Origin: Hugenholtzia roseola DSM 9546
GTDB lineage: Bacteria > Bacteroidota > Bacteroidia > Cytophagales > Bernardetiaceae
DNA length: 61,298 nucleotides
Direction: 5' to 3'
Assembly (NCBI RefSeq): GCF_000422585.1
Contig: NZ_KE383880.1
Location: 128,001 to 189,298 of the forward strand
Shown: in pieces, positions 6,496 to 58,228 of the stretch
Layout of the letters: each line of letters opens with the position of its first letter
How positions within the stretch are numbered: position 1 is the first letter of the stretch
Program-made: the position numbers and the translations under genes
The notes under the pieces: model-generated
The model's database searches: none
Told to the model about the DNA's origin: nothing
The model's input: only the letters and a program-made list of their open reading frames with translations

Positions 6496-6659
6496 TTCAG
6501 ACACAAACTTTTTGGTATCTAAAAAATGGCTTCTCTGAAAATAGCTCTCCTGCCGCATGCGCTTTATTTGTTGTCTTTTTTTGTTTTGTAAAAAACGCAA
6601 GGTAGCCATCTTTCGCTGCAAAAGCAAATTTGCGGCATCGAGGATTTTCCAACAGCTTT

Positions 6660-7319
6660 TCAAAAATCTTTGCCTTGCGAAAAATAATCTGCTCCCCCTT
6701 CCTGCGGCTCTATGGCGATAAGACGCGCCAAGGTCATCTTGACCAAAATGGCGGAGGCTTCGGGTATGGAAATGGCGGCAAGTTTGGCGAAATTTTCTAC
6801 ATTGATGCGCTTATGACTCCCCAAATATTTGAGTAGCCACTGCTCTTTTTCGCCATAATTGACAAAGGTATCTTTGGGATTGCTTTCGGCTTTCAAAATC
6901 TTGCGCATCTCACGACTGGCTTGTAGGCTTTTATCCAAACTGCGAATGTAGGCGCGACCGATTTTGCCCTTCGAGTCGTGCAAGAGAAAGACGGGCTTTT
7001 GGGTGTGGGGTTTGATGTCGAAGACCAAGACCTCTTTTCCCTCTGTGCGCGGCACTTCGATTCGATGGAGTTGGTATTCTATCTGCGGCTTGCAAAACTT
7101 TTGCAGGGTAGTGGCAAGTGCGTAAAGTTCCTCGTCGGGGTGTTTGAGTCCATTGATAGTGCCATCATCGGAAACGCCAATAATAAGTTTGCCACCTTTG
7201 GTATTGGCAAAGGCAACGGCTTCACGCGCAATTTTATGCGGATAATAGACTTTGCGTTTAAATTCTATTTCCAAACCTTCGCCTTGTGCAACAAAACGGC
7301 GTAGTTCTTTGAAGGTCAT
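6660..7319 (-). CDS. AlbA_2 (divergent AAA-4 / Schlafen-like) putative DNA-binding domain protein
   Basis: N-terminal ELRRFVAQGEGLEIEFKRKV...REAVAFANTKGGKLIIGVSDDGTINGL is the typical AlbA_2 motif set. Confidence 0.55.
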   Translation of the reverse strand: MTFKELRRFVAQGEGLEIEFKRKVYYPHKIAREAVAFANTKGGKLIIGVSDDGTINGLKHPDEELYALATTLQKFCKPQIEYQLHRIEVPRTEGKEVLVFDIKPHTQKPVFLLHDSKGKIGRAYIRSLDKSLQASREMRKILKAESNPKDTFVNYGEKEQWLLKYLGSHKRINVENFAKLAAISIPEASAILVKMTLARLIAIEPQEGGADYFSQGKDF

Positions 7320-8355: not shown

Positions 8356-10347
8356 TTGGCTTTCCGAAAAGCCTTTTCAAACTATTCATCTTTTGTCTTC
8401 TCTCTCATGACGCGCATCAAGCCCTCGATTTTGGAACTATTGGAAAAGGAAGAGTCCATTTTTTTGAAAATGGATAAATATACGGAGGTGAAAGAAATCA
8501 TCACAACCGACCCCCTTTTCAAAGCCACCTCTTGGGCAGGCTACCGCTTTTTGGCGCAAATGCCCCCTGAATTAGAGCCTATTATCGCCGAATTGGTCTT
8601 CAAGACCATACAAAAGCAAACCCTACAAAGCCTCACACTCAACCAGACGCTGCACCCTTTGTTGCCTTTTTCTATCAAAATTAAGTTCTTTCCTACCGAT
8701 AAAAATACCATAGGCGCAACCCTAACACGATACAAAGAAGATTATATCGCCACTAAATTTTACGAGCGCGTGCCTGTCATGACGCTTTATCTAAATGAAA
8801 CCGACGAGGTAATTTGGGCAAATCAGCAGTTTTATAGGAAAGCAGCCTTCGAGCCTACGCAACTTATTTCAGAAAATGCACGTGATTTTTTGAAAATAAA
8901 TCCCAAAATCTTACAACATGATGCCTTAGCCATCAAAGAGCCGCACCTGCGCACAGAATACAAACTTTTAAAAGGCGATGGAGGCTTTTTGCACGTTATC
9001 CTGACGGCAACGCGCCAATACGACGACGAAGGGCGATTTATTTGTACGGTAGTGGTTTTGCGCGATATTACCGAAATGAAGCTCACCCAAATAGAATTAG
9101 AGTACCAAAAACTTTCTATTGATGAGGCGGCGATTGTGGCGGCTACTGATGCAAAAGGCGATATTATTTATGTCAATAACAAATTTTGTAAGATATCGAA
9201 ATATTCGCGCGAAGAACTGATTGGGCAAAATCACCGCTTGCTCAAATCGGGCTATCATGAGCCTTCTTTTTTTGTAGAGATGTGGAAAACTATCGCTTCG
9301 GGCAAGGTCTGGCGCGGCGAAGTCTGCAACAAAGCCAAAGACGGTTCGCTATATTGGGTCTATACGACGATTATCCCCTTTTTAGACGAAAAAGGAAAGC
9401 CCTACCGCTATCAGTCTATCCGCTTCGAAATTACGAAAAGAAAAGAATTAGAGGACGAAATCAAACACTATACCGAGCATCTGGAAGAAGTAGTAGAGGA
9501 GCGCACACAGGAATTAAAGTTCAAAAGCGATTTGCTTTTTGAAATGAATGAAGAACTGCTGTCGCAAAACGAAAGATTAGAAACTAAAAATAAGTACATT
9601 CAACAAAGCATCAACTATGCCCAACGCATACAAGATGCGATTTTACCCAAAGAGGCACATCTGCCTGCTTTTGTCAAAGATTACTTCCTGCTTTATCAGC
9701 CAAAGGACATTGTTTCGGGCGATTTTTATTGGTGGTATCAAGATGCAGAAACACAGCGTTTTGTGTGGGTCATTGCCGACTGCACAGGGCATGGCGTACC
9801 CGGTGCTTTTATGTCTATGATTGGCATGACGCTTTTAGATGAAATTGTCAAGACCAAAAATATCTTTGCGCCTGCCGAAATTCTCAATCAGATGCGCGTA
9901 GAAATTGGGCGAGCCTTGCAGCAGGATATTACACAAAATCGCGACGGCATGGATATGAGCGTAGTCTGTTTTGAGGGAAAGACCCAAAAAATCCACTTTG
10001 CAGGAGCGCGAAACCCCATTTTATTGATTCAACAAGGGCGTTCTTATTGGCTAAAAGGCGATAAAATGAGCATTGGAGGCAGACTGGTGCGCAACGAACC
10101 TTTCCAAGAACAGACCTTTGATTGGCTCGAAGACACACAAATCTATGCCTTTTCAGATGGCTACGCCGACCAGTTCGGCGGCGAAGACCTGCGCAAATTT
10201 TTGAGTGCCAATTTCCGTAGCCTGCTTCTTTCGCAAGCGCACCTCCCTATGAGCGAACAGAAAGCCGCTATCCAAGCCGCCCACAAAGCATGGAAAGCAG
10301 GGCAAGACCAAATCGACGACATCTTAGTGATGGGCTTGCGGGTGTGA
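8356..10347 (+). CDS. PAS/PAC sensor fused to a SpoIIE/PP2C-type serine phosphatase
   Basis: Two PAS-like blocks (for example IIYVNNKFCKISKYSREELIGQNHRLLKSGYH...GEVCNKAKDGSLYWVYTTIIPFLDEKGKPYRYQSIRFEITKRK). Then a coiled coil, then SINYAQRIQDAILP, DIVSGDFYWW, ADCTGHGVPGAFMSMIG and SDGYADQFGG. The start is ambiguous between 8356, 8407 and 8470. Confidence 0.8.
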   Translation: MAFRKAFSNYSSFVFSLMTRIKPSILELLEKEESIFLKMDKYTEVKEIITTDPLFKATSWAGYRFLAQMPPELEPIIAELVFKTIQKQTLQSLTLNQTLHPLLPFSIKIKFFPTDKNTIGATLTRYKEDYIATKFYERVPVMTLYLNETDEVIWANQQFYRKAAFEPTQLISENARDFLKINPKILQHDALAIKEPHLRTEYKLLKGDGGFLHVILTATRQYDDEGRFICTVVVLRDITEMKLTQIELEYQKLSIDEAAIVAATDAKGDIIYVNNKFCKISKYSREELIGQNHRLLKSGYHEPSFFVEMWKTIASGKVWRGEVCNKAKDGSLYWVYTTIIPFLDEKGKPYRYQSIRFEITKRKELEDEIKHYTEHLEEVVEERTQELKFKSDLLFEMNEELLSQNERLETKNKYIQQSINYAQRIQDAILPKEAHLPAFVKDYFLLYQPKDIVSGDFYWWYQDAETQRFVWVIADCTGHGVPGAFMSMIGMTLLDEIVKTKNIFAPAEILNQMRVEIGRALQQDITQNRDGMDMSVVCFEGKTQKIHFAGARNPILLIQQGRSYWLKGDKMSIGGRLVRNEPFQEQTFDWLEDTQIYAFSDGYADQFGGEDLRKFLSANFRSLLLSQAHLPMSEQKAAIQAAHKAWKAGQDQIDDILVMGLRV

Positions 10348-12359: not shown

Positions 12360-12485
12360 AATTTGAGCGAAATAAAATTTGGATTGAACCTTTTTCGGGT
12401 CTGAAACGCCTTTGTGTTTCAATCAAACTTAGGACAAGGCAATGCCTTGTCCCTACATTTGAAAATGATTTTTTTAGAACCAAAC
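12360..12485 (+). repeat. MITE-like hairpin repeat, copy 1
   Basis: gaaataaaatttggattgaacc...tttcaatcaaacttaggacaaggcaatgccttgtccctacatttgaa...tttttagaac. Confidence 0.75.
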
Positions 12486-18626: not shown

Positions 18627-19194
18627 AGATTTTTTAGAATAGATTGGGTAGGTTTCGTAGTGGGGAGCAGAGGGGCGGCAAATTTTCTTCTGCCAACATT
18701 TAGTACGCGAAGGAACTAAGCAGAAAACTTATATCAGAATTGCGTTTCTTTGTAACGAAAAACCCTTTATAGAGTTGGGTCGGAGCTGCATTTTGTCCCG
18801 CTTTCGGCGACAAAAAAGAAGGGTCTATGCCTTCAAATAGGCTTATGAAAAGCCTTTCCTCTTTTCTACTGCTGCAAATATGATACAGAATCGCGGTTTT
18901 TTATGAAAATTTGAAGAAAGAAAATAAAAAAACTCGAAAAGGCGCGTGCTTTTTGGTGGGAAATGCGGAAATAAGGGAAGAATGTAGTGCCTTTGAAGCG
19001 ATTTGGGTCGGAAGTAGTAATTTTTGAGAATCGTAAAGAAGAAGAATATCCGCTATTGGAAGGGTAAGATACGCAAAAAAACAGCGTCTTTCCCTACCAT
19101 AACTAAAAAAGGCGAAAAATAGGTTTTTTATTTTTGAAAAAAGCCCAAAAACAGAATTTAGGCACAAATAAAAAGCCTTACACAAAATTTTATA

Positions 19195-19292
19195 CCAAAG
19201 ACTAAGAGCCAACCCTAATTACTATCAACATAACATCATCTATTTATTTGAGGTTTCCTTTTCAATTTTCTAAGTCTGCTGCAAGTTTTGTG
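19195..19292 (-). pseudogene. decayed remnant of the 3' end of a SpoIIE/PP2C sensor gene, paralogous to 20900-20990
   Basis: About 85% nucleotide identity to 20899-20990 (the C-terminal coding end of the 1165-aa phosphatase). Its reverse complement encodes ...QNLQQT*KIEKETSNK*MM...DDVMLIVIRVGS*, aligning with ...QNLQQTLENWKGNLKQIDDITLIGIRIDP*. Two in-frame stops are present. Confidence 0.5.
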
Positions 19293-19564
19293 CTTGCAGG
19301 ATAGGCAGTTGCAAAGAGAATTTTGTGGCTTCAAAGTGGGATTATTTTTTTGCTAATATTTTTCTATTTTACTATCTTTGTAGTATCTTACAATGCAAAG
19401 CCAAGGTTTCGTTATTCGTAGTGTTCCCATAACCAGAAAATAGCCCAAATAGTAGTATTGTCAATAGTGCAAATCTCAAATAGCGGATACAAAAAGGCAT
19501 AAAAAAATAGTAATCTCTAAAAAAAGCGTATCTTCACACTCTAATTTAGCGCATAAAGCCCTTT
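19293..19564. repeat. about 280-bp Rpn-flanking repeat R, copy 1 (immediately upstream of rpn-1)
   Basis: About 90% identical to 20438-20722. It contains the block aaaagcataaaaaaat(a/g)gtaatctctaaaaaaa(g/t)cgta(t/c)cttcacactctaatt(t)agcgcataaag directly before the rpn start codon. Confidence 0.85.
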
Positions 19565-20413
19565 ATGGAAAACGAAAAACCTAATCAAAAAGAACAAAAT
19601 CTTTACGATAAAATTTTAAAGGAAAATATCTTATCGTATGTCTTACAATTTTCAGAAAAACAGTTGGGATTTCGCATCAAAAAGCACGCTTTATTAAAAG
19701 ATAAATTACAAACTACCTTAGAACGAGAGGCGGATTTTCTAATTTTTATCACCACCCAAGACGAAAAAGAATTTATCCTACAATTAGAGTTTCAAGCAAG
19801 AGATGAACCTAATATGGTGCTTCGTATGCAAGAATATCATGCCATTTTACAAAAAAAATACCAAATACCTGTTATTCAAATCGTTTATTACTTAGGCGAA
19901 ACGCCCAGCAATATGCGTGCTACCCTTGCGCCATCAGAGGTTTTCACAGGCTTTCAATTAAAATCTTTTAGAGATTATTCCTACAAAGAGTTTATCGAAT
20001 CTGAAAATGCCGAAGAGGTCATTATGGCAGTTTTGGCGGATTTCGAAAAGGAAAAGCAGGAAGAAGTGATTAGTAAAATTTTATTCCGCCTTTCGCAACT
20101 AAAAACAGATATTACTGCGTTAAATAAGTATGTCAAGCAGTTGCTTGTTTTGGCGCGTTTGCGCAATAAACTTCCAAAAATCATTCAAAACCAATTAGGC
20201 AATATGGGAACGATAGGATACGACATCGAAAAAGATGACTTTTATTTGCAAGGCTTAGAAAAGGGCAAAATAGAAGGTGAACGCGCTGGCGAGTTGAAGG
20301 CTCGTCATGAATTAGCGATTTCTTGCTTACAAGATGGGCTTTCTGTGGAGAAAACTGCTAAACTTACAAAATTATCCATCGAGGAAGTTCGGAAGTTGAG
20401 TAAAGAGTTGTAA
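19565..20413 (+). CDS. Rpn-family (YhgA-like) PD-(D/E)XK recombination-promoting nuclease / putative transposase
   Basis: N-terminal ...LEREADFLIFITTQDEKEFILQLEFQ... carries a D...E-x-Q core as in YhgA/Rpn nucleases. The C-terminal tail has GLEKGKIEGE repeats and an HTH-like end LSVEKTAKLTKLSIEEVRKL. Confidence 0.75.
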   Translation: MENEKPNQKEQNLYDKILKENILSYVLQFSEKQLGFRIKKHALLKDKLQTTLEREADFLIFITTQDEKEFILQLEFQARDEPNMVLRMQEYHAILQKKYQIPVIQIVYYLGETPSNMRATLAPSEVFTGFQLKSFRDYSYKEFIESENAEEVIMAVLADFEKEKQEEVISKILFRLSQLKTDITALNKYVKQLLVLARLRNKLPKIIQNQLGNMGTIGYDIEKDDFYLQGLEKGKIEGERAGELKARHELAISCLQDGLSVEKTAKLTKLSIEEVRKLSKEL

Positions 20414-20437
20414 GCCTGTTAGTCGTCTTCGGCTGTT

Positions 20438-20722
20438 GTTTGTGCAGGATAGTCAGCGGCAAAGAGAATTTTATGGCTCCAAAGTGGGGTTATTTTTTTG
20501 CTAATATTTTTCTATTTTGTTATCTTTGTAGTATCTTACAACGCAAATCCAAGGTTTCGTTATTCGTAGTGTCCCAGTGACCAAAAAGTAACCCGAATAG
20601 TAGTATTGTCAATAGTGCAAAGCTCAAATAACACATACAAAAAAGCATAAAAAAATGGTAATCTCTAAAAAAATCGTACCTTCACACTCTAATTAGCGCA
20701 TAAAGTCTTGTCTTTTCAAATT
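20438..20722. repeat. about 280-bp Rpn-flanking repeat R, copy 2 (downstream of rpn-1), with an orphan promoter-like block not followed by an rpn gene
   Basis: Direct repeat of 19293-19564. It is followed by a MITE-like element and then the 3' end of the phosphatase gene. Confidence 0.85.
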
Positions 20723-20857
20723 TAAAACAAAATAAAATTTGGGCAGAACCCTATTTTTGGGTACTAAAACCCTTTTTTGTTTCAATCTCACTTCGGACAA
20801 GGCAATGCCTTGTCCCTACATTTGAATCTGTTTTTTTAGAATTTAACATCACTGCCC
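20703..20857 (+). repeat. MITE-like hairpin repeat, copy 2
   Basis: Shares aaataaaatttgg ... tttcaatctcacttcggacaaggcaatgccttgtccctacatttgaa ... tttttagaatttaacatcactgcc with the other copies. Confidence 0.75.
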
Positions 20858-20899
20858 TTATAAGGCTTAGTCGCAGACGATAAGCCTTAGCCACGAAGA

Positions 20900-23800
20900 C
20901 TAAGGGTCAATCCTAATTCCTATCAAGGTAATATCATCTATTTGTTTGAGATTTCCCTTCCAATTTTCCAAAGTCTGCTGCAAGTTTTGTTTTTGCGCCT
21001 CTGTTGGCAGTAGAGGCAAAGTAGTGAGTAGATTTTTCAGGTTTGTTACCATAAACTTGCGCCCTCGCTCGCCGCCAAATTGGTCTTGGAAACCGTCAGT
21101 AAGAAGGTAGAAAAAAGTAGGCACTTGAATACTGCCCTGATGTAGCTCAAATTGGCGCGGTTTGTCCTTTTCCAACTGCCCTTGCTGCCCACCGATAGCC
21201 CTTTTCGTACCTTTAAGAATTTGTAGCGTAGGGGTTTGCTCGGCTTCGAGTGGCAAAAAATAAAGCGGATTCATCGCTCCTGCATAAGAAAAGGCAGAAT
21301 AACGCGGTCTTTGAGGTTCAAAATTCGCACTTTTTTCCAATGTTAGCACGACAATGTCCATGCCGTCGCGCACCTGTGAATCTTTTTGTTTGAGTGCTTC
21401 CATAATGCCCTGATGCAGTTGTGTCAGGATTTGAGCAGGCTCGATTATCTTTTCTAAATTGATAATTTTATTTAAAAGTTCGTTTCCTATCATAGACATA
21501 AAAGCACCGGGTACGCCATGCCCTGTGCAATCAGCAACGGCGATAAGTGTATGATTTTCAAGCTCTTGCAAGAAATAAAAATCACCTGAAACGATGTCTT
21601 TGGGCTGATATAAAATAAAGAAGTTTTCCTTTCCAAATGCCTTTTCGAAGCGGCTTTCGAAGGGCAAAATTGCCTCTTGTATGCGTTTGGCGTAATTGAT
21701 GCTGGCAGTGATGTTGTTATTTTTTTCTTCGAGGTCGTCTTTTTGTAGATTGACTAAATCTAAGGTTTGTCGCATTTCCTCATTAAGCTGTTTGAGATTT
21801 TCAGCCTGCACTTCTATTTCTTCTTTTTGCTGCTCTAATTCTAAATTTTTGAGTTGAATTTCCTCTGTTCTTTCCTTAACAAGGCGTTCCAAACGCAGCT
21901 TTGAAGCACGCAGGCGATAGGTATAAGCACGCACAAAGGCATAAAGAAGCCCAAATCCGAGCAATAAGAAAAGTCCATACGCCCACAAACGACGATACCA
22001 AGGCGGTGCAATCGTAAAAGCAACTTTTGTAGGCAAACTTTCTATTTTCTGGCTATTTCGCGCCTGCACCCAAAAAGTATAGTGTCCTTCGGGCAAGTTG
22101 GTGTATTCCTTGCGCCTTTGCTCTGTCCAATCCGACCAAGTTTCTTCATAACCTTCCAACCAATAGCGATAACGATTTTGGTCTTCCTGATAAAAAGAAG
22201 GCGCGGCATAGGTAAAAACAAGCGCATTGAAGCGGTAAGGTAGTTCGAAGGGAGCGATTTGACCACCACTTTCACCTCCAAACAGTAGGCTATCGCGATA
22301 CGCCAAACTGACTTTGCGAATCAAAGTCTGATAAGGGACAGACTTGCCCAAATCGTGTTCGGGTTTGTAGCGAAAAACGCCCAGTGCGGTAGCAAACCAA
22401 AATGTAGGCGATTCGGATTGAGTATCGTAATAAAAGCGCGAAAGATAGTCGGGCAGAGGTGCAAGGGTAAGGGTATCTTGTACCCAAGTGTCGGCTTGAT
22501 TGCCCTGCCCTTTTGTAGGCACTTGTTCAGATTTGAACAACAAAGTCTTAGCCGAGGGCATCACCCAGTAGGAGGGCTTCGAATCGGCGATTTCTTGCAA
22601 AGGCAATAGATAAGGATAGGCAAAACGCGGATTCTGCCAATCCAGACCCCAAGGATTGTAAGACTTAAAAGATTGACTTTTTTCATCAAAAGTATAAATA
22701 CCTGATGCAGTAGAAAAAAGAATTTGGTTCTGCCAAGCGATAATTTTACAACTCTCTATTTTTTCCAAGCCCTTTGTATGGAGTTGTACCTTTGCTGTTT
22801 CTACGCCTTTTTTTGAACCTCTATCTTCCTGAAAATCAATAGAATAGAAACCTTCCTTAGGCGACCCCACCCACACTCTACCATCTGCCTGCTCCTGCAC
22901 AGAGCGCGAAATGACCTGCTCGAAGGCGGGAATCTTGCCCACACGCAAAAATTTATCTTCTTCTGCCTGATAGCGCAGCACCTCAAAGCCTTGATAGTTG
23001 GCTTTATAGACAATGTTGCTATCTATTTTAGAACGCCCAATCGCCATATTTGCCCATTCGCCATCTATATTTTGTGCAATTTTTTTGTTTTTGATGTAAT
23101 AAAACCCATAATTTCCACCTGCCACAATTAGGTCATCTTGAAAAGGCAGGAGCTGCCAACATTGTGTAGAAGGCAAGTTTGCTATGCGTTTGAATAGCTC
23201 TGCTTCCAGATAAAAAAGTCCATCGTTGGCGGAAACATATAAGGTTTGGTCGGCACTACGACAAATATCTGTCGTATAACTTTTCAAATTTTGTGGCTCT
23301 TTGTAGGCTGTAAAAGGTAGATGAATCGCAATTTGACTCAAACCCTTATCGGTTGCTACCCAAAGTGCCTGATTTTTATCTACAAAAACATAGTTAATGC
23401 TATTACTAATTAGACCAGAAGCCTCGTCTATGTGGTACAAAGTTTTCCCTGCGGCATTAAAAATTAGCACCCCTCTATCTTTAATGCCTAATACATAAAT
23501 ATCCTCGCCTTTTTTATCCTTTAAATGCGTGGCTACATAAACGCCCCTATCTTTGAGCAAATGCTGGTCTTCGAGCGGAAAAGCACTCACTTGTTTGCTT
23601 TCAATATCATACAAAAAAAGAGAGTCTATATTAAGCGGACAAAATAAAATTTTCTTCTGACCATAAGGCAGAGCCGCACGCAGGCTTAGGCTATGCGTAA
23701 AGATGTAATGCTCGCTTTCTAAAATCCATTTTTGATTTTCGAATCGGTACAAGCCCTTGCTGGTTTCATTTTTCCAAAAACCTGTACCTACTTCAAAGAT

Positions 23801-24397
23801 GTCTATTTTATCCGTTTCTGCCTCTACCTGATGATAAGAAAAGGTGCTATCTTGGGTATGAAAAATGTAGAGCCTATCTTCGCTCGAAAAGTAAAGGTCT
23901 TTTTCTATTTGATGCACCTCGGTAATAAAGGGCGTTTTCTCGATGCTATCAGGCAGGTACGGACGTAGAGAATGGTACTGCCATTTCCCTAAGGCGTTGA
24001 TTTTGAGATAGCCAAGGTCGTCATCATTGGCGACATAAGCAAGTGTAGGGTCTTTTTTATCAAAAAGCAAATGCCGAACTACGCCCCCACCTGTCTGCAT
24101 CTGCTGCCACTCTGCACCATCATAGACGAGCAAAGCGTCGCGATTGCCTACATATAATTTGCCTTGTGCGTCTTGCGCAAGCGTCCAGAGAACGGACGAG
24201 GCTTGATAGATTTTCTTGTCATAATTCTGAATAAAAGGCGTTCCCCAGCGTAAAGTAGGAGCGAGAGTCTGCTTTGCATTTGAAAGTTCTTTTTTTTGGC
24301 TCTTTGCCTCAAATGTACAAAAAAACGCAAGCCCAAGCAAAAAAACAACTTTGAGCCAATATCTAAAAAAAATGTGTGTGAAAAAGAAAGGAGTCAT
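20900..24397 (-). CDS. sensor protein: signal peptide, two-component-regulator-propeller (Reg_prop) repeats, Y_Y_Y domain, TM helix, coiled coil, SpoIIE/PP2C phosphatase
   Basis: 1165 aa. The long N-terminal beta-propeller-like region is followed by YRYWLEGYEETWSDWTEQRRKEYTNLPEGHYTFWVQARNS (Y_Y_Y) and the TM helix WAYGLFLLLGFGLLYAFV. Then SINYAKRIQEAILP, DIVSGDFYF, ADCTGHGVPGAFMSMIG and TDGFQDQFGG. Confidence 0.8.
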   Translation of the reverse strand: MTPFFFTHIFFRYWLKVVFLLGLAFFCTFEAKSQKKELSNAKQTLAPTLRWGTPFIQNYDKKIYQASSVLWTLAQDAQGKLYVGNRDALLVYDGAEWQQMQTGGGVVRHLLFDKKDPTLAYVANDDDLGYLKINALGKWQYHSLRPYLPDSIEKTPFITEVHQIEKDLYFSSEDRLYIFHTQDSTFSYHQVEAETDKIDIFEVGTGFWKNETSKGLYRFENQKWILESEHYIFTHSLSLRAALPYGQKKILFCPLNIDSLFLYDIESKQVSAFPLEDQHLLKDRGVYVATHLKDKKGEDIYVLGIKDRGVLIFNAAGKTLYHIDEASGLISNSINYVFVDKNQALWVATDKGLSQIAIHLPFTAYKEPQNLKSYTTDICRSADQTLYVSANDGLFYLEAELFKRIANLPSTQCWQLLPFQDDLIVAGGNYGFYYIKNKKIAQNIDGEWANMAIGRSKIDSNIVYKANYQGFEVLRYQAEEDKFLRVGKIPAFEQVISRSVQEQADGRVWVGSPKEGFYSIDFQEDRGSKKGVETAKVQLHTKGLEKIESCKIIAWQNQILFSTASGIYTFDEKSQSFKSYNPWGLDWQNPRFAYPYLLPLQEIADSKPSYWVMPSAKTLLFKSEQVPTKGQGNQADTWVQDTLTLAPLPDYLSRFYYDTQSESPTFWFATALGVFRYKPEHDLGKSVPYQTLIRKVSLAYRDSLLFGGESGGQIAPFELPYRFNALVFTYAAPSFYQEDQNRYRYWLEGYEETWSDWTEQRRKEYTNLPEGHYTFWVQARNSQKIESLPTKVAFTIAPPWYRRLWAYGLFLLLGFGLLYAFVRAYTYRLRASKLRLERLVKERTEEIQLKNLELEQQKEEIEVQAENLKQLNEEMRQTLDLVNLQKDDLEEKNNNITASINYAKRIQEAILPFESRFEKAFGKENFFILYQPKDIVSGDFYFLQELENHTLIAVADCTGHGVPGAFMSMIGNELLNKIINLEKIIEPAQILTQLHQGIMEALKQKDSQVRDGMDIVVLTLEKSANFEPQRPRYSAFSYAGAMNPLYFLPLEAEQTPTLQILKGTKRAIGGQQGQLEKDKPRQFELHQGSIQVPTFFYLLTDGFQDQFGGERGRKFMVTNLKNLLTTLPLLPTEAQKQNLQQTLENWKGNLKQIDDITLIGIRIDP

Positions 24398-24780: not shown

Positions 24781-25641
24781 ATGGAAGACAAAAAACCTAA
24801 TCAAAAAGAACAAAACCTTTACGATAAAATTTTAAAAGAAAATATCTTATCGTATGTCTTGCAATTTTCAGAAAGGCAGTTGGGATTTTACATTAAAAAA
24901 CACGCTTTATTAAAAGATAAACTACAAACCACCTTAGAACGAGAAGCCGACTTTTTAGTTCTTATCACCACCCAAGACGAAAAAGAATTTATCCTGCAAT
25001 TAGAATTTCAGGCAAGAGATGAGCCAAATATGGTACTTCGCATGCAAGAGTATCATGCTATCTTACAAAAGAAGTATCAAAAACCTATTATTCAAATCGT
25101 ATATTACTTAGGTGAAACGCCCAGTAATATGCGTGCTACCCTTGCGCCTTCGGAGGTTTTTACAGGCTTTCAATTAAAATCTTTTAGAGATTATTCTTAC
25201 AAAGAATTTATCGAATCTGAAAATGCCGAAGAGGTCATTATGGCAGTTTTGGCGGATTTCGGAAAGGAAAAACAGGAAGAAGTCGTCAGTAAAATTTTAT
25301 TCCGCCTTTCGCAACTAAAAAGCGACGTTACTGCGTTAAATAAGTATGTCAAGCAGTTGCTTGTTTTAGCGCGTTTGCGCAATAAACTTCCAAAAATCAT
25401 TCAAAACCAATTAGGCGATATGGGAACGATAGGATACGACATCGAAAAAGATGACCTTTATTTACAAGGTTTGCAAAAGGGCGAGTTAAGAGGCTTAGAG
25501 AAAGGCTTAGAGAAAGGAAAGCTCGAAGCTCGCCGTGAATTAGCAATTTCTTGCTTACAAGACGGGCTTTCTGTAGAGAAAACTGCTAAACTTACAAAAC
25601 TATCCATCGAGGAAGTTCGCAAGTTGAGTGAGGAATTGTAA
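24781..25641 (+). CDS. Rpn-family PD-(D/E)XK nuclease, paralog of 19565-20413
   Basis: About 93% aa identity to rpn-1. It carries an 11-aa insertion (LRGLEKGLEKG) in the EKG-repeat tail. The same upstream promoter-like block lies at 24700-24780. Confidence 0.75.
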   Translation: MEDKKPNQKEQNLYDKILKENILSYVLQFSERQLGFYIKKHALLKDKLQTTLEREADFLVLITTQDEKEFILQLEFQARDEPNMVLRMQEYHAILQKKYQKPIIQIVYYLGETPSNMRATLAPSEVFTGFQLKSFRDYSYKEFIESENAEEVIMAVLADFGKEKQEEVVSKILFRLSQLKSDVTALNKYVKQLLVLARLRNKLPKIIQNQLGDMGTIGYDIEKDDLYLQGLQKGELRGLEKGLEKGKLEARRELAISCLQDGLSVEKTAKLTKLSIEEVRKLSEEL

Positions 25642-25728
25642 GTTTATTAGGTGTACTTCGTCGTTACTTGTGCAGGATAGTGAGTGGCAAAAACAATTTT
25701 GTAGCTTCAAAGGGTGTTTTTTGCTATT

Positions 25729-25790
25729 TTTGTAGTATCTTACAGCGCAAATCAAAGATTTGCCGCACTGATAGGTCGTAGTCGGAGACT
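25729..25790. repeat. inverted-repeat element IR-a (left arm)
   Basis: tttttgtagtatcttacagcgcaaatcaaagatttgccgcactgatagg is the reverse complement, with few mismatches, of 26826-26877 and 27243-27294. It contains the internal hairpin gcaaatc-aaa-gatttgc. Confidence 0.7.
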
Positions 25791-25883
25791 ACGCCCAACG
25801 GGGGCTTATCCCACTGGCGTTAAAAGCGTGGATTGGTACGTAAATGATAAAAAAGGAAACAAAGTAATAATTCAAAAAATAAA

Positions 25884-26303
25884 ATGAAAAAATTTTTTTT
25901 ATATTTAATAGCTATTTTTACGTTACTTTCTAGTAATAGTGCAAAAAACACAAGCGTGGTTTTAGACAGTAATACGCAATACTACATAAAAAAAGTAAAA
26001 AAAGTAAAAAAATGGTATATTATTTACGCAATGAAAAACAAAGTATTATATAAAATAGTTTCAAAAGATGACAATACTTTTAACAAAAACTGCAATAAAA
26101 TAACTATTGGAAAACAATATGATTTAATTTTGAAATCGCACAAAGAGTCTGCACCAGTCATTAATGGAGTTCTTATTGCTCCTGTTGGATATAGTGGATG
26201 TTATCATTTTGATAGTGAAACGACTATATGTTTAGAACCTAATAAAGATATTTATGATTTATTTTATACAAATAACTTAAAAGGAATTTGCTATGTTAAA
26301 TAA
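25884..26303 (+). CDS. hypothetical secreted/lipoprotein-like small protein, very low GC (possible orphan immunity protein)
   Basis: N-terminal signal peptide MKKFFLYLIAIFTLLSSNSA. GC is visibly far lower than the about 46% surroundings. It lies immediately upstream of, and overlaps, the RHS C-terminal fragment. Confidence 0.4.
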   Translation: MKKFFLYLIAIFTLLSSNSAKNTSVVLDSNTQYYIKKVKKVKKWYIIYAMKNKVLYKIVSKDDNTFNKNCNKITIGKQYDLILKSHKESAPVINGVLIAPVGYSGCYHFDSETTICLEPNKDIYDLFYTNNLKGICYVK

Positions 26304-26787
26304 AAACTTCTGGCAATACAACGGCAAGGAGAAGGAGACGTTTTTGGGGCTGCACCTCACCGACTACGGCTGGCGACAACAAGACCCACAACTTTGTAGG
26401 TTTTGGGGTATAAACCCGCTGGCAGAGAAGTATTACAGCCTCACGCCCTTTGCCTATGTAGCCAATAATCCTATCAATGCGATTGACCCTGATGGGAGGG
26501 AGATAACCTACACTTTTTCTGAAGATATGACAGGTGAAGAAAAAATGGAATTTTTACAAGGTCTTTCTAAATTATACGAAGATTCTAATACTTTTCAAAC
26601 AATGTTTGATGATTTAGCTTCTTCCAAACATGAACATAAAATACAAATATTTGGATATAACTCAAAAGACGTAAACAACCGCGAACATACGACTAACCCT
26701 GATGACAAAATTGGTAGGGGTAGCCAGATGAACTTGGGGCTTGGTGGCTCCCCCGTTGTCCGCAGTGTTCCCATAACCAAAGAATAA
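26293..26787 (+). CDS. orphan RHS-repeat-associated core C-terminal fragment plus variable C-terminal (putative toxin) domain
   Basis: NFWQYNGKEKETFLGLHLTDYGWRQQDPQLCRFWGINPLAEKYYSLTPFAYVANNPINAIDPDGRE is the conserved RHS/YD core end (NGKEKD...YDYGARxYDPxLGRF...DPL...Y.YV.NNP...DPDG). Beyond it lies a divergent, AT-rich 95-aa tail. There is no upstream RHS repeat body. Confidence 0.7.
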   Translation: MLNKNFWQYNGKEKETFLGLHLTDYGWRQQDPQLCRFWGINPLAEKYYSLTPFAYVANNPINAIDPDGREITYTFSEDMTGEEKMEFLQGLSKLYEDSNTFQTMFDDLASSKHEHKIQIFGYNSKDVNNREHTTNPDDKIGRGSQMNLGLGGSPVVRSVPITKE

Positions 26788-26825
26788 ACCAAAAGTTTGG
26801 CGTAGCCTCCGACTACGACCTATCA

Positions 26826-26877
26826 GTGCGGCAAATCTTAGATTTGCGTTGTAAGATACTGCAAAAATAGTCTTTAC
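26826..26877. repeat. inverted-repeat element IR-b (right arm, copy 1)
   Basis: cctatcagtgcggcaaatcttagatttgcgttgtaagatactgcaaaaatag is identical over about 52 bp to 27243-27294 and inverted relative to 25729-25790. Confidence 0.75.
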
Positions 26878-26959
26878 TTTGAAAAAACAAAATAATCTTT
26901 ACCACTTTTGCAGTTCTCATTTTTGGTAAGGGACAAAATGTCCTCTACCACTTTTATTC

Positions 26960-27187
26960 CTACAACATCTTCTTGATAAGGGCAAGCAAGTTTTTTTTAA
27001 GTGTTTGCTTGTCCGTTTTAGAAATTGAATCAGGAATAAGCGATAGTAAAGACCCAAATTCTTCTACTATTGATTTTCCTTCTTGTGTTAGTAGGTCTTG
27101 ACCTTCTTTGACTTTATTCTTTTTACTTGACTTCAAAAAAGAAATAAAAGACTCTACATTCTCAAAAAAAGGAGCTTCTTCCTTCAT
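26960..27187 (-). CDS. small hypothetical protein (weak call)
   Basis: ORF 26960..27310. Its 5' part is encoded by the IR-b copy, so the likely start is the internal Met at 27187. No family was recognised. Confidence 0.25.
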   Translation of the reverse strand: MKEEAPFFENVESFISFLKSSKKNKVKEGQDLLTQEGKSIVEEFGSLLSLIPDSISKTDKQTLKKNLLALIKKML

Positions 27188-27242
27188 TTGTGCCAAGTTT
27201 TGAATTTGTGTTTTTGTAACACTCACACGACCTCTTAAAATC

Positions 27243-27294
27243 CCTATCAGTGCGGCAAATCTTAGATTTGCGTTGTAAGATACTGCAAAAATAG
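27243..27294. repeat. inverted-repeat element IR-b (copy 2, direct with 26826-26877)
   Basis: Exact 52-bp repeat of 26826-26877. Confidence 0.75.
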
Positions 27295-27424
27295 CAAAAA
27301 ACAAATACAAAATGCTATTTTTTAGATGTTTTGATAGCAGCAGCCCTGCAAAGCGAAGATTTAGTTTTATTTTTTGTATTCAGAAGACTTTGCCGAATGG
27401 GGAGTAGCAATATCAAGTCTTGCG

Positions 27425-27545
27425 AAAAGCCTTATCTTATTAAATTGGAAACAAAATAAAATTAGGCTCAAACCTTGTTTTGAGCCTAAAAACTCTTTTT
27501 ATTTCAATCTCACTTCGGACAAGGCAGTGCCTTGTCCCTACTCAC
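27425..27545 (+). repeat. MITE-like hairpin repeat, copy 3
   Basis: ...ttggaaacaaaataaaattaggctcaaaccttgttttgagcct...tttcaatctcacttcggacaaggcagtgccttgtccctac. Confidence 0.75.
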
Positions 27546-27755: not shown

Positions 27756-28607
27756 CTATTTGGGTGCAATGACCCCTAATTTTTTCTGCAACTGATTCAA
27801 GACCTGCTTGATTTCGTCGAGCGAAGTTTCCGCCTCTGGCGTTTTTTTGCTGATGTAGGCAGCGAATTTCCAAATCTCCTTGACCTGACGCGCAGGGAGT
27901 TCGTAGGGGCGATACTGCAAGTTGGTAGATTCTAATAAAAAAGTACCCTTTTCTTTGACCTGATTATGAACTCTTTTAAAGACAATTCCCTCGTCTTGGG
28001 CTACTAAGACGCAAAATTCGCCTTCTTTCAGGTCGTTCCAATCGGCAACATACTCACCAATCACAATCGTACCCGATTCAAGCGGTAGCATCGAGTCGCC
28101 CGAAATTTCGAAGGAGCGGTAGGTGCGCTCGGCAGGGAGAAAAGGCAATTTAAACTTGGGTAGCTCTTTGATATATTCCAAATCGGCATACCCTTTGGCA
28201 TACCCTGCGGCAGCTTTCTGTGGCACTAATTCGATGTTTTCGTTGTTTAGCTCATCTACCGAAATAGCCAAAACACGCACATTTGTACCTGCTACGTAAT
28301 TCCCCACTTGTAGGCGGTGGTAGGCACTCCAATAAGGGGTATTGACTCTTTGTCGGAATTTGCGCTCCTCTAAATTTTCGTTGAGCAGTTCATCTACAGT
28401 AACTTCAAAATAATTTGCCATAGCGACAAGCGTATCGAGGCGCGGTTCGGCTCTGCCCTCCTCGTAGGAAGAATAAGCCCCGCGCGTGATGCCTAATTTA
28501 TCGGCAATGACTTCCTGACTCTTTTTGCGTGTGTTGCGGGTGCGTAAAAAGCGAAGATTATTGCTAAGATGCATAGTTTTGAAATTTTTTACTAAGGAAA
28601 TTTGCAA
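27756..28607 (-). CDS. HTH-XRE DNA-binding domain fused to an S24 (LexA/CI-like) self-cleaving peptidase domain; repressor-like
   Basis: N-terminal LRFLRTRNTRKKSQEVIADKLGITRGAYSSYEEGRAEP (HTH_3). C-terminal FEISGDSMLPLESGTIVIGEYV...FKRV, an S24 Ser-Lys dyad context. Confidence 0.8.
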   Translation of the reverse strand: MQISLVKNFKTMHLSNNLRFLRTRNTRKKSQEVIADKLGITRGAYSSYEEGRAEPRLDTLVAMANYFEVTVDELLNENLEERKFRQRVNTPYWSAYHRLQVGNYVAGTNVRVLAISVDELNNENIELVPQKAAAGYAKGYADLEYIKELPKFKLPFLPAERTYRSFEISGDSMLPLESGTIVIGEYVADWNDLKEGEFCVLVAQDEGIVFKRVHNQVKEKGTFLLESTNLQYRPYELPARQVKEIWKFAAYISKKTPEAETSLDEIKQVLNQLQKKLGVIAPK

Positions 28608-45582: not shown

Positions 45583-47520
45583 TTATAGCTTTATTCCCAC
45601 AATCGTAACGTCGTCGCGTTGGGGTTCTTTTTGTTTATGTGCCTCGAAGAACCGCTCCAAAATTTCTTTCTGGCGGCTCAAACTCTGCCTATGCACCTGT
45701 TCGAGGGTTTGGGCAAAGCGCAGACTGCCAAATTTTTCGCGAGCCGCATTGTTTTGGTCGGCAAAACCGTCAGTGGTGAGGTAGAGGATTTCGCCCTTGC
45801 GTAGGCTCAATACTTGGTTGTTAAAAGGCTGATTTTCAGACTTTTGTCTGCCTCCGATACCGCGCTTGTCCCCTTTTAGCAAGTGGAGTTTGCCATTTTT
45901 GGTGTAATAAAGCGTGCGTTTTGCACCTGCAAAGGTAACGATTTTCTGGTCTGTGCCATCATCGATGCAACAAAGACAAATATCCATGCCGTCGCTATTT
46001 TTGCCTTCTTGTTGGTGCAATGCGTTTTTGATTTCAATATGCAGCACTTCTAAAATCATGGCAGGGTCATAAATTTTGCTCTGCCCCACAATTTTATTGA
46101 GCAAAGTATGCCCAATCATAGACATAAAAGCACCGGGTACGCCATGCCCTGTGCAATCGACAACGGCAATAAAAGTGCGCCTTTTTTTGCGAAACAACCA
46201 ATAAAAATCGCCCGACACCAATTTTTGGGGCTTGTAAATCACGAAACTATCCTCGAAAAAAGCATTTAATTCCTCCTCGGTAGGCAAAACGGCTTCTTGA
46301 ATTTGCTGCCCATAGCGGATACTATCCATAATTTTTTCTTGCGAATGAGCAATTTGGTCAGATTGAAGTTGAATTTGAGCAATATTATTTTGTACTGTTT
46401 CAAGCATTTTAGCAAAATCATTAGAGAGCCAACCTATTTCATCATTGCTTTTTACTTGTTCTAATTTAATACTTTCTGAAAAATTATTTTTAATGACTTT
46501 ATGAATAGAATTAGATAATTTTCGTACAGGTTTGCTCAAATATTGTGTAACGAAAAGACTTAGTAAAATATTAGACACAATGCAAAGCAGCACTACGCCT
46601 ATAAGCGTGAGTTTGATGCGCTCTTTAAGTGCCAAACTTTTCTCGGTCGCCTCCTTCTGAATGTGGTCTATTGATTTTTGTATCTCCAAAGAAAGCACCG
46701 AAAACTCTTGCAACAAGCCATCACCTTTTTTAAGTCCTATTTTTTCTTCATAAGTTACTAATTGAGTAAAAGTATCGCGATAACTCGTGAGCAAAGCAAT
46801 CATTTTATCGCGCTCTTCTGGATTGCGCACCGAAAGGGCAATGTCCCTTCGCAGGCTATCTACCATGACTAAAAGTTTGGCGATATAAATTTTTTCTTTT
46901 CTAATAATAAAATCTTTTTCATAACGACGAATCATTAACATTTTTTCCTTGTCGAAAGGAAAAGGCGAAGATTCTATCCGATGGATATAACGCCTCATTC
47001 TGCCCTCTACACCAAAATCTTTGAAACCGCGCAAATTGATAAGCAAAATGAGGCTATCAAAGCGCGTTTCGTAGCGCACCAAAAGCCGCCTAATGTCTGC
47101 AATATCCATCTGAATAGCCAAATTGCTAATCTCTTTTCTATTTTCTAAGGTTTGAAGTTGCTGCAAAACCTCGCGCAACCTTTTTTTGCGCTCTTTCAAA
47201 TAAGGGCTATCTCCTTTCCGATAATATTCGGGGTTGATAGTTTCATTGCTAAAAAAATCTTTTTCTAAGGATTGTATTTTTACGACATTAAAATTGATTT
47301 TTCCTACCAAGCTCATAAACTCATCTATTTCGCTGCGGCGATAGTCAAACCAAAAAGTAACCATGATGATACAGCCCATCAAAAGCAAAAAGCTAAGAAA
47401 GGTAACTTCTAATTTGAACTTTAAACTCCTAAATTTCGAGGGCGTATCAGTAGGCATGCGCTTGGGTGCATTTTTTTGCTGCAAAGGTAAAGGCTTGCTT
47501 CTATGTTTTGATTGCCTCAA
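45583..47520 (-). CDS. membrane sensor: TM1, periplasmic domain, TM2, HAMP, coiled coil, SpoIIE/PP2C phosphatase
   Basis: Two TM helices (FLSFLLLMGCIIMVTFWF and LIGVVLLCIVSNILLSLFV). HAMP-like KPVRKLSNSIHKV...DEIGWLSNDFAKML. Then IRYGQQIQEAVLP, LVSGDFYW, VDCTGHGVPGAFMSMIG and TDGFADQ. Confidence 0.8.
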   Translation of the reverse strand: MRQSKHRSKPLPLQQKNAPKRMPTDTPSKFRSLKFKLEVTFLSFLLLMGCIIMVTFWFDYRRSEIDEFMSLVGKINFNVVKIQSLEKDFFSNETINPEYYRKGDSPYLKERKKRLREVLQQLQTLENRKEISNLAIQMDIADIRRLLVRYETRFDSLILLINLRGFKDFGVEGRMRRYIHRIESSPFPFDKEKMLMIRRYEKDFIIRKEKIYIAKLLVMVDSLRRDIALSVRNPEERDKMIALLTSYRDTFTQLVTYEEKIGLKKGDGLLQEFSVLSLEIQKSIDHIQKEATEKSLALKERIKLTLIGVVLLCIVSNILLSLFVTQYLSKPVRKLSNSIHKVIKNNFSESIKLEQVKSNDEIGWLSNDFAKMLETVQNNIAQIQLQSDQIAHSQEKIMDSIRYGQQIQEAVLPTEEELNAFFEDSFVIYKPQKLVSGDFYWLFRKKRRTFIAVVDCTGHGVPGAFMSMIGHTLLNKIVGQSKIYDPAMILEVLHIEIKNALHQQEGKNSDGMDICLCCIDDGTDQKIVTFAGAKRTLYYTKNGKLHLLKGDKRGIGGRQKSENQPFNNQVLSLRKGEILYLTTDGFADQNNAAREKFGSLRFAQTLEQVHRQSLSRQKEILERFFEAHKQKEPQRDDVTIVGIKL

Positions 47521-48289: not shown

Positions 48290-48456
48290 AAAAGTCTTGT
48301 TTTTCGAATGAGAAACAAAATAAAATTTGGGCTGAACCTTATTTTTTGGCAGGAAAACTCTTTTTTATTTCAATCTCACGACAGGTAGGGCAGTAGCTTA
48401 TCCCTATCTTTCCACCTACTAACTTTTAGAATTTAATACCACTGCCGCTTTCCCTC
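48290..48456 (+). repeat. MITE-like hairpin repeat, copy 4 (variant central hairpin)
   Basis: ...cgaatgagaaacaaaataaaatttgggctgaacc...tttcaatctcacgacaggtagggcagtagcttatccctatc...tttagaatttaataccactgcc. Confidence 0.7.
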
Positions 48457-54761: not shown

Positions 54762-54868
54762 GAAAAGCCTTGTCTTTTCGAATTGGAAACGAAATAAAAT
54801 TTGGGTCTGAAAGCCTTTTTTATTTCAATCTCACTTCGGACAAGGCAGTGCCTTGTCCCTACAAAAGC
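54762..54868 (+). repeat. MITE-like hairpin repeat, copy 6
   Basis: gccttgtcttttcgaattggaaacgaaataaaatttgggtctgaaagcc...tttcaatctcacttcggacaaggcagtgccttgtccctac. Confidence 0.75.
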
Positions 54869-57549: not shown

Positions 57550-57559
57550 GCGCAAGGCT

Positions 57560-58228
57560 TTATCTGACAAATCGGAAGTTCTGATATCCGCCATCTCTAA
57601 ATTGTTCAATTGATTTAATTCGTTTGTCTGCATCTGCCTTAACTCGTTTATAGTGGATTGTAGCAAGGTCGCAAAAAATATTAAAGAAATCTTGATAAGA
57701 CCTATTCCATTCTATCTCATCCCAGACCTGATTTATTGTATAATTAAGCCTCACTTGTCCTGTCCCCAAGTTTTCAATGCGATACATGTTTTGGGGCAAG
57801 CAGTGAAAAGGGGCAACACAGATGTACTCGATTTCTCTACTATTGTTTTTTGCAGTCGACCTATCATGTCCAAATTCGACAATCATAAAAATCCCTCTAT
57901 CATTTGCAAGAAATTTAAGAAGATTTCCGATAGCACATACACCACCGTCCGAATAACTTTTCGAATCCAAATCCTTGGTTTTAACATCAAACCCAAAAAG
58001 TTTGTTTTCAATGTTGCAAGCAAAATCAAAGATGGTTCTTCGTCCTGGTATATCAACCGTCTGATAACCTAAATTCGAACAAATCTTGTCCCAACTATCG
58101 GTTATTCTTTTTTCAATCATTGCACCAAACGCCCTGCTATCTTCTCTTGCGGAGATTCCTGACCGCATTTCTTCAAAAAGCGTTTCTATTTCAAGTTCAA
58201 TTCTCTTTGCTATTTTCTCGTAATCCAT
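57560..58228 (-). CDS. hypothetical protein, candidate PD-(D/E)XK restriction endonuclease partner of the adjacent MTase
   Basis: 222 aa, AT-rich, immediately upstream and co-oriented with the N6A MTase. IFDFACNIENKLFGFDVKTKD offers a D...(D)VK pattern compatible with a PD-DxK core. There is no recognisable family match by eye. Confidence 0.35.
   Translation of the reverse strand: MDYEKIAKRIELEIETLFEEMRSGISAREDSRAFGAMIEKRITDSWDKICSNLGYQTVDIPGRRTIFDFACNIENKLFGFDVKTKDLDSKSYSDGGVCAIGNLLKFLANDRGIFMIVEFGHDRSTAKNNSREIEYICVAPFHCLPQNMYRIENLGTGQVRLNYTINQVWDEIEWNRSYQDFFNIFCDLATIHYKRVKADADKRIKSIEQFRDGGYQNFRFVR

Follow-up and report, generated by a model that had tools for sequence, protein, structure and literature searches.

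Does the short piece of Hugenholtzia roseola DSM 9546 DNA in which the end of an RHS core lies next to an AT-rich gene, between inverted repeats and beside a gene for an Rpn-like nuclease, represent a mobile toxin/immunity cassette, or is it what remains of a larger toxin locus? We addressed this question in a window of 61,298 nt (NZ_KE383880.1, positions 128,001-189,298); all coordinates given here are those of the window. An initial annotation, made from the letters of the sequence, had favored a mobile or recombination-competent cassette. Our analysis points to another origin. The segment 25804-26749, about 950 bp, probably descends from a polymorphic-toxin (RHS) orphan array and now survives as a relic amid the repeats 3' of the Rpn-like gene Rpn-2. 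In order, it retains the last 27 codons of one toxin gene (toxin-1), an intact gene (imm-1) and the tip of a second RHS gene (tip-2, with 66 aa of core and about 82 aa of tail). The relic appears to have lost sequence at both ends, where illegitimate recombination involving microhomology or template switching linked it to copies of an Rpn-flank module, D-UL-H. The identities and boundaries of these pieces, and the membership of the repeats in the Rpn flanks, are established at the level of sequence comparison. The supposed secreted cargo would then be an orphan immunity-type gene of a different toxin, and the supposed cassette a decayed piece of a polymorphic-toxin array. The pieces are as follows.

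25804-25887, plus strand: 3' stub of toxin-1, 27 codons (AYPTGVKSVDWYVNDKKGNKVIIQKIK) and a stop codon
25884-26303, plus strand: imm-1, intact AT-rich open reading frame (ORF) of 139 aa, identical to NCBI protein WP_027002856.1
26293-26787, plus strand: tip-2 ORF, 164 aa, identical to NCBI protein WP_027002857.1
26304-26502, plus strand: RHS core fragment of tip-2, 66 aa of the core end, beginning at the imm-1 stop codon
26503-26784, plus strand: tail of tip-2, 94 aa, about 35% GC
26503-26749, plus strand: unique portion of the tip-2 tail, about 82 aa, toxin-derived
~26750-26793 (ORF part 26750-26787), plus strand: segment X', the last ~12 codons and the stop codon of tip-2, resembling segment X of the Rpn flank

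The initial annotation had raised the concern that the locus might be an assembly artefact, and this was not borne out. An independent Logan contig, L001 (run SRR896243), crosses all internal junctions of the locus. Because it is an exact substring of the window at 25775-26829, the internal junctions are not an assembly chimera. The contig ends inside the repeats, where a break is expected because the sequence is multi-copy.

The AT-rich gene follows a different toxin

As the initial annotation described, imm-1 is an AT-rich ORF of the secreted type that overlaps the tip-2 ORF, by 11 nt. Its GC content is 23.8%, compared to 41.8% for the window, and its hydrophobic, signal-like N-terminus predicts export. 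An ORF of this length is not expected by chance (0 of 20000 mononucleotide shuffles were free of stop codons). Its relatives among 5.8 billion protein clusters were two, P0018 (57% identity over the full length) and P0019 (63%), and four Cys residues are conserved between imm-1 and both of them. No match to the profiled families of Pfam and NCBIfam or to the PDB was found.

The position of these relatives is informative. Homologs of imm-1 sit directly 3' of toxin-1-type RHS genes, and co-oriented with them, in all three Bacteroidota-like metagenome contigs that carry them. The contigs represent two lineages, and their toxin-1 tails are 81% identical.

L002, 1-1890: RHS gene with a toxin-1 tail, paired with an imm-1 homolog
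L003, 3-881: RHS gene with a toxin-1 tail, paired with an imm-1 homolog
L004, 2-811: RHS gene with a toxin-1 tail, paired with an imm-1 homolog

The RHS genes of these contigs encode a TIGR03696 core followed by a tail of ~215 aa, which contains ...AHGKPG.DILHEVTEAYQG... and ends in ...YPAGVKSADWYVNDKKGNKVVIQAIK before the stop codon; the tail has no match in Pfam, NCBIfam or PDB. In L002 the order is main RHS gene, imm-1 homolog and a further orphan RHS tip. The H. roseola locus holds the end of the same kind of gene. The stub AYPTGVKSVDWYVNDKKGNKVIIQKIK is identical at 22 of 26 positions to the RHS C-termini in L002 and L003 (blastx E about 1e-14), and its stop codon overlaps the imm-1 ATG. 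DNA homology to the three contigs (~69% identity) spans 25803-26301, that is, from the edge of copy A, the left flanking repeat, to the imm-1 stop codon. Because of the placement of its homologs and of the toxin-1 stub at 25804-25887, imm-1 is the immunity-position gene of a deleted upstream toxin-1 and not the partner of tip-2. The toxin/immunity pair that the initial annotation saw in imm-1 and tip-2 thus dissolves.

imm-1 is plausibly an orphan immunity candidate, a role assigned to it from its conserved gene position. Both homologs carry a lipobox (LHSC and LSSC), and their lipoprotein signals suggest that toxin-1 acts in the periplasm. Toxin-1 with its lipoprotein partner looks like an undescribed toxin/immunity family, presumably one acting in the periplasm.

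The RHS tip is probably truncated

The start of tip-2 is an RHS core end, as had been claimed. Residues 4-68 match positions 14-75 of the 76 positions of the TIGR03696 (Rhs_assc_core) model with E=2e-11 and 44.2 bits, above the curated cutoff of 32.5, and the core carries a ...DPxG-type motif that reads NNPINAIDPDGRE. The divergent 94-aa tail that follows is likewise as described. In sequence, tip-2 has the features that define an orphan rhs-CT: the core end is present, and the delivery region and the YD shell are missing. Its context is not that of an orphan rhs-CT, as the main rhs gene, a complete toxin domain and a downstream immunity gene are all missing. The missing RHS body noted initially was confirmed over a wider range. 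There is no full-length RHS gene in the 25 kb upstream or the 34 kb downstream of tip-2, and no YD/RHS motif besides tip-2 elsewhere in the window. Scans of the window and of 37 of its ORFs, which include all ORFs of at least 150 aa except six, found no recombinase domain, YD repeats, integrase, transposase or type VI secretion system (T6SS) genes. The description of tip-2 as an orphan, displaced RHS tip adjoining Rpn-like genes therefore holds, from the TIGR03696 core end and from TIGR01784 matches of the neighboring genes.

On direct reading, tip-2 takes its ATG and first three codons from the 3' terminal part of imm-1, read in a different frame. At the other end, 26754-26793 matches 19410-19449, in the upstream flank (U) of the second Rpn-like gene Rpn-1, at 82.5% identity (33 of 40 nt) and in the same orientation. 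The local alignment score is 54, compared to a shuffle maximum of 36, and the match holds a 16-nt exact core that is otherwise present in the window only in U. Because the ORF end resembles segment X, the tail is probably truncated to ~82 toxin-derived residues. Nearly all other tips that were retrieved have tails of 140-212 aa (one has 85 aa). The core of tip-2 also departs from its relatives at conserved positions (YGWR for YGAR, QQDP for YYDP, CRF for GRF and INPL for VDPL). Contrary to the initial view of a toxin/immunity cassette, tip-2 is thus probably 3'-truncated, and no co-oriented immunity ORF lies 3' of it, the next ORF being on the opposite strand.

The initial annotation recognized no family in the tail, and profile searches of Pfam, NCBIfam and PADLOC were indeed empty, as was a search of the PDB. 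Pfam gave no match even at E<=10. A phmmer search of 1.84 billion representatives returned only the tail itself. By these comparisons the tip-2 tail belongs to no described family. Most of the RHS tips with the closest cores bear HExxH metallopeptidase tails of 140-212 aa. A truncated M91-like/Tox-MPTase tail was considered for tip-2 and rejected, since BLASTP and phmmer comparisons with the HExxH tails were not significant and hhalign gave 1% probability.

tip-2 is most likely an inactive remnant, because it has no delivery shell, a borrowed start codon, a C-terminus derived from a repeat and no downstream immunity gene. It is highly improbable that it acts as a functional stand-alone intracellular toxin whose translation is coupled to imm-1, in a toxin-antitoxin module like the Salmonella orphan Rhs. 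The precedent (PMC7043789), the position of the ATG at 26293 within the 11-nt overlap with the imm-1 end, and a tail ORF whose freedom from stop codons goes well beyond chance, being matched by only 0.14% of shuffles, would all fit such a toxin. These points are outweighed by the lack of a same-strand cognate immunity or antitoxin ORF downstream, the probably repeat-derived C-terminus, the substituted core positions and a structure model that shows no confident fold (pLDDT 33) and is unusable.

A tip may also serve as a donor for exchange with a full-length RHS gene. Among 5.8 billion protein clusters the best non-self match to the tip-2 core was 54% identical and none came from H. roseola; the cores of the arrays with imm-1 homologs were only 36-43% identical to it. 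Because the best non-self core match is only 54% identical, tip-2 has no visible tip-exchange partner among these clusters.

The inverted repeats belong to the Rpn flanks

The DNA around the relic consists of the following parts.

24781-25641, plus strand: Rpn-2, Rpn-like PD-(D/E)XK nuclease gene, 286 aa, WP_027002855.1
25642-25714, plus strand: segment D, conserved 3' flank of Rpn genes
25715-25803, plus strand: repeat copy A, the left arm, made of UL (25715-25761) and H (25762-25803, two hairpins)
26795-26906, minus strand: repeat copy B, the right arm, made of H, UL and part of D, inverted
27243-27305, minus strand: repeat copy C, made of the first 14 nt of H and of UL, oriented as copy B

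The inverted flanking repeat reported initially is present. Its arms at 25724-25799 and 26795-26870 are 76 nt long, 93% complementary and bracket imm-1 and tip-2; the right arm had been misplaced at 26826-26877. Weaker similarity widens the arms to about 25682-25803 and 26795-26906, with the extension of copy B into D scoring z=5.3. The third copy was placed correctly, as 27243-27294 is 100% identical to 26819-26870 and 95% identical to copy A. The hairpin described in the element (GCAAATC-NNN-GATTTGC) is real; copies A and B hold a second one (CGTAGTC-GGA-GACTACG), and copy C has one hairpin. None of 100 shuffles matched the 51-mer or reached the observed hairpin count. Folded as DNA, copy A reaches -14.9 kcal/mol (z=-3.05).

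These repeats were taken to be specific to the cassette, and this did not stand. DNA similarity between Rpn-1 and Rpn-2 runs into UL, so copy A is the continuation of the native 3' flank of Rpn-2. The five in-window copies all map to within about 2 kb of the two Rpn genes, and outside the window there is at least one more, beside unrelated DNA; this UL-H copy encodes the first 30 residues of the protein P0021, the sequence beyond it is unrelated, and it shares with copy A the right boundary that falls at 25803. Judged from this distribution, the inverted repeats are Rpn-flank sequence, copies of a 3'-flank/intergenic module, and not cassette ends. The initial annotation had named repeats unrelated to the cassette among the outcomes that would speak against it, and the membership of the repeats in the Rpn flanks agrees with this in spirit.

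We consider an inverted-repeat-bounded toxin/immunity cassette, mobile or exchanging its tip onto a full-length RHS gene, very unlikely. A genuine 76-nt inverted repeat does bracket the ORFs, an Rpn-like nuclease gene adjoins, and the core-end fragment might in principle offer the homology that exchange requires. However, imm-1 and tip-2 are not a cognate pair, tip-2 has no immunity gene after it and ends in repeat-derived sequence, and no close core homolog was found from any organism. Copy A is continuous with the Rpn-2 flank, so there is no discrete outer terminus, and there is no target-site duplication. A second copy of the cargo was absent among the 5.8 billion clusters and 1.84 billion representatives.

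Promoters of Bacteroides and Flavobacterium follow the Bacteroidetes consensus TTTG-N17-23-TAnnTTTG. The copy A region contains TTTG-N23-TATTTTTG at 25698-25732, reading into the stub and imm-1. Further matches lie in the Rpn-1 flanks U (19349-19380) and U' (20497-20528) and, on the minus strand, in copy B (26891-26862), where the match is antisense into tip-2. U, U', copy A and copy B account for 4 of the 12 matches in the window, where 5.3 are expected by chance. Copy C misses the consensus spacing and faces a small minus-strand ORF. UL may thus have promoter activity, as judged from the consensus. Given this direction of the match in copy A, imm-1 is probably expressed from UL, as an orphan immunity protein that would protect against competitors armed with toxin-1, much like the orphan immunity genes of Bacteroidales AID clusters (10.1101/471110). 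It is plausibly the only functional product of the relic.

Arms of this kind could also recombine with each other. In a phase-variable segment, recombination between copies A and B would flip the 1-kb segment and switch its expression, and the length (76 to about 112 nt) and 93% identity of the arms, as well as the promoter-like sequences in both, would allow this. Such inversion would have no switch logic because both arms carry the same inward-facing promoter, and either orientation gives one sense and one antisense reading. No gene for an invertase or a tyrosine/serine recombinase was found nearby, and the window and the Logan contig show one orientation, although the Logan contig stops inside the repeats. 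We regard a phase-variable segment as extremely improbable.

The UL-H element was not found in viral contigs, and the H pattern was absent from metagenome contigs. A degenerate UL pattern gave five metagenome hits, which we rejected as chance coding matches or as 36-42-nt similarity beside the terminator of an unrelated organism. Because it was not found in the viral or metagenome collections, the element appears to be lineage-specific. A search of Rfam at a permissive threshold over 25600-27450 gave no match. We dropped the suggestion that H arose from the beginning of UR, as an inverted copy made by a small inversion between GCAAATC motifs, since the local alignment covered 8 nt and was not significant.

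One further ORF lies among the repeats.

26960-27187, minus strand: small helical ORF, 75 aa from an internal Met, between copies B and C

NCBI annotates it as a 114-aa protein (WP_027002858.1, to ~27310) that starts inside copy C. Its frame is open as far as the junction with the repeat, so that it resembles the C-terminal remainder of a gene truncated by the element, and it is stop-free beyond chance (only 0.12% of shuffles are free of stop codons). No homologs were found beyond the repeat-encoded N-terminus. A weak PADLOC match to Csm2 (E=1.3e-4) is probably compositional.

The Rpn-like genes and their flanks

The second Rpn-like gene of the window lies in a larger unit.

19565-20413, plus strand: Rpn-1, encoding a protein 90% identical to that of Rpn-2
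19273-20705, plus strand: Rpn-1 unit, consisting of U (19273-19558), Rpn-1 (19565-20413) and U' (20421-20705)

The two genes match TIGR01784 with E=3.1e-9 (Rpn-2) and 2.3e-7 (37 and 31 bits, below the cutoff of 52.1), and have no Pfam match at E<0.1. A third paralog, P0024 (WP_027003191.1), lies on another contig, with the P0021 locus beside it. The three paralogs share at least 90% identity, and the copy number of their KGLE/KGIE/KGLQ tetrapeptide repeats, roughly 2 to 7, is almost all that separates them; these repeats start about 18 residues after an internal Met, M214. According to PMC10400941, variable tetrapeptide repeats after an internal start are the hallmark of the RpnL/RpnS gene-within-gene arrangement in E. 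coli, B. fragilis and other bacteria. Because the tetrapeptide pattern matches this hallmark, the H. roseola Rpn paralogs likely carry an intragenic antitoxin.

DNA similarity between the two loci extends beyond the genes. The segment 24685-25722 matches 19469-20494 with 86.5% identity; the similarity begins ~95 nt before the gene, passes the stop codon by ~80 nt and continues into UL, the left half of the inverted-repeat element. U and U' flank Rpn-1 as a 286-nt direct repeat, 87% identical, and contain UL and X; UL lies at 19361-19409 and 20509-20557 (nhmmer E=3e-8 and 1e-9).

The Rpn-1 unit, about 1.57 kb in this measure, is itself bracketed by a ~140-bp direct duplication (19157-19297 and 20866-20996). 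The upstream copy is a decayed version, with in-frame stops, of the last ~23 codons of a minus-strand SpoIIE/Y_Y_Y gene at 20900-24397. The duplication is unusually long, and this suggests that the Rpn unit was inserted by a route that does not involve a transposase.

How the relic may have reached the Rpn flank

Copy A is the own flank of Rpn-2 and copies B and C are inverted partial copies, so the inverted repeats are products of rearrangement among Rpn flanks. At the left junction about 8 nt of possible microhomology are seen between the element end (CCAACGGGG) and toxin-1 (CCATCGGG in L003), as might be expected if the relic was joined to the module by illegitimate recombination.

An alternative is that the Rpn system took part in the event. 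Nuclease cleavage and template switching at the UL-H hairpins would then have captured a piece of foreign RHS-array DNA between UL-H and X. In copy A and in the copy outside the window, the last nucleotide of UL-H is the same, and what follows in both places is unrelated AT-rich DNA with an outward-reading ORF. Beyond the relic, X' is oriented as UL of copy A, which matches the order UL-X in U. The possible left microhomology, the promoter consensus in UL and the long duplication around the Rpn-1 unit all agree with such an event, and E. coli RpnA promotes RecA-independent recombination, for which a template-switch mechanism was proposed (PMC5350276). Several points weaken the case. Only two junctions are informative. 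H belongs to the repeated module, so the UL-H junction predates the event; serial deletions and inversions among the repeats would give the same layout; and rpn genes are regarded as not autonomously mobile in PMC10400941. Taken together, we find Rpn-linked capture unlikely. To the same low degree we credit its extension, that the outward promoter now expresses the captured immunity gene and makes the locus an Rpn-based analogue of the Bacteroidales orphan-immunity islands; an array of several immunity genes is absent here.

A related idea, that a mobile or recombinogenic Rpn unit has its active end in D-UL-H, and that this end joins heterologous DNA after Rpn-dependent cleavage and template switching at its hairpins and so captures fragments like this relic, is likewise unlikely. 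If true, it would provide an Rpn-based counterpart of the integron-like immunity capture of recombinase-associated acquired interbacterial defense (rAID) clusters, and the first sequence-level footprint of Rpn gene movement and genome rearrangement. The discrete end and the promoter-like sequence of the H. roseola module do lie beside rearranged or truncated foreign-looking DNA. For the question of how rpn genes spread, the genome of H. roseola may offer a tractable setting.

Several observations weigh against our preferred explanation, a decayed array piece left in the Rpn-2 flank. The collinear order of UL in copy A and X' around the relic is explained equally well by capture into the Rpn flank and by decay in place. 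The similarity of X' to X is short, and should it be due to chance, the 94-aa tail could represent a small but complete toxin. RHS genes were sought in 61 kb, and a full-length H. roseola RHS partner or more copies of the repeats may lie elsewhere. The immunity role proposed for imm-1 draws on a single kind of evidence, its conserved gene position. With LSSN in place of the lipobox of its homologs, imm-1 lacks the cysteine that would be lipidated, which could mean decay, and its structure model, built from a three-sequence alignment, is unusable (pLDDT 47).

Comparison with known systems

Orphan immunity genes and orphan RHS tips are already well known, and the finding of both at one locus would not surprise a specialist. 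The value of the locus is modest and lies in a toxin-1/imm-1 pair and a tip-2 tail that belong to no described family, and in the well-defined flank module of the Rpn-like genes. Orphan rhs-CT/immunity modules have been described in Salmonella Typhimurium, whose orphan rhs functions like a toxin-antitoxin module (PMC7043789), and exchangeable immunity genes accompany the Rhs effectors of Serratia (PMC10539506). Like these orphan modules, tip-2 starts inside the core end, has no YD shell and carries a divergent AT-rich tail, and the gene before it is the immunity gene of the preceding module, as in L002. Unlike them, the H. roseola locus has no main rhs gene within the 61 kb, its tip is not followed by an immunity gene, only 27 codons are left of its upstream toxin, and the fragment borders on Rpn-flank repeats at either end. 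In contrast to the enterobacterial examples, the arrays carrying imm-1 homologs come from Bacteroidota-like metagenome contigs.

Acquired interbacterial defense (AID) and rAID-1 clusters of Bacteroidales keep orphan immunity genes (Ross et al., 10.1101/471110). The H. roseola locus resembles them in having a low-GC immunity-type gene without its toxin, in a member of the Bacteroidota, near repetitive intergenic DNA and a gene for a DNA-active enzyme. Two features set it apart from rAID-1: a XerD-like tyrosine recombinase was absent from the 37 window ORFs that were scanned, and the locus has a single immunity-type gene instead of two or more co-directional ones. Because it has neither the XerD recombinase nor an array, the locus is not an rAID-1 cluster. 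It differs from AID clusters in general in that its repeats are Rpn flanks and imm-1 is unrelated to any profiled family.

The Rpn-like genes agree with the Rpn (YhgA-like) family, as described in PMC5350276 and PMC10400941, in their TIGR01784 matches, near-identical paralogs and variable KGLE/KGIE repeats. They depart from the family reference in scoring under the curated cutoff and in having no Pfam match. A flank module with promoter, hairpins and a discrete end was not found in the accessible portions of either paper.

Miniature inverted-repeat transposable elements (MITEs), composite transposons and REP-like repeats share with this locus short hairpin repeats in both orientations that bracket a DNA segment. 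The H. roseola repeats differ from MITEs and transposons in that they have no target-site duplication or transposase, and on its outer side copy A runs on as Rpn flank. No further copies of the whole unit were found, and the cargo proteins were unique among the 5.8 billion clusters and 1.84 billion representatives, apart from the two distant imm-1 homologs in RHS arrays. The locus is not a transposon or MITE, since it lacks a target-site duplication and a discrete outer end, and since the collections searched contained no other copy of it.

Other features of the window

The remaining genes are those of an ordinary chromosome, including rplB, aspartokinase, CoaBC, RecF, UppP and the T9SS protein PorP/SprF. 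Directly right of the repeat region, at 27756-28607, lies a gene for a LexA/CI-like repressor (HTH_3 and Peptidase_S24). The same window that holds the Rpn-like genes encodes an N6_N4 DNA methylase and an Eco57I-like restriction-modification methylase (53101-54684 and 56050-57666).

A second, dispersed repeat is unrelated to the Rpn-flank repeats.

12370-12456, 20702-20819, 27426-27541, 48290-48406 and 54762-54862, plus strand: repeat Y, a ~118-nt REP-like intergenic repeat

The match between 27426-27541 and 20702-20819 was considered as evidence that the relic lies inside an Rpn unit, and this was dropped because Y is independent and has five copies. All five copies, within 61 kb, are in a single orientation, and Y contains a terminator-like hairpin and a second, perfect hairpin, GGACAAGGCANTGCCTTGTCC.

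Four large sensor proteins encoded within the same 61 kb (4408-6663, 8356-10347, 20900-24397 and 45583-47520) carry C-terminal SpoIIE (PP2C phosphatase) domains, and their sensor modules are 7TMR-DISM, PAS and Y_Y_Y/Reg_prop.

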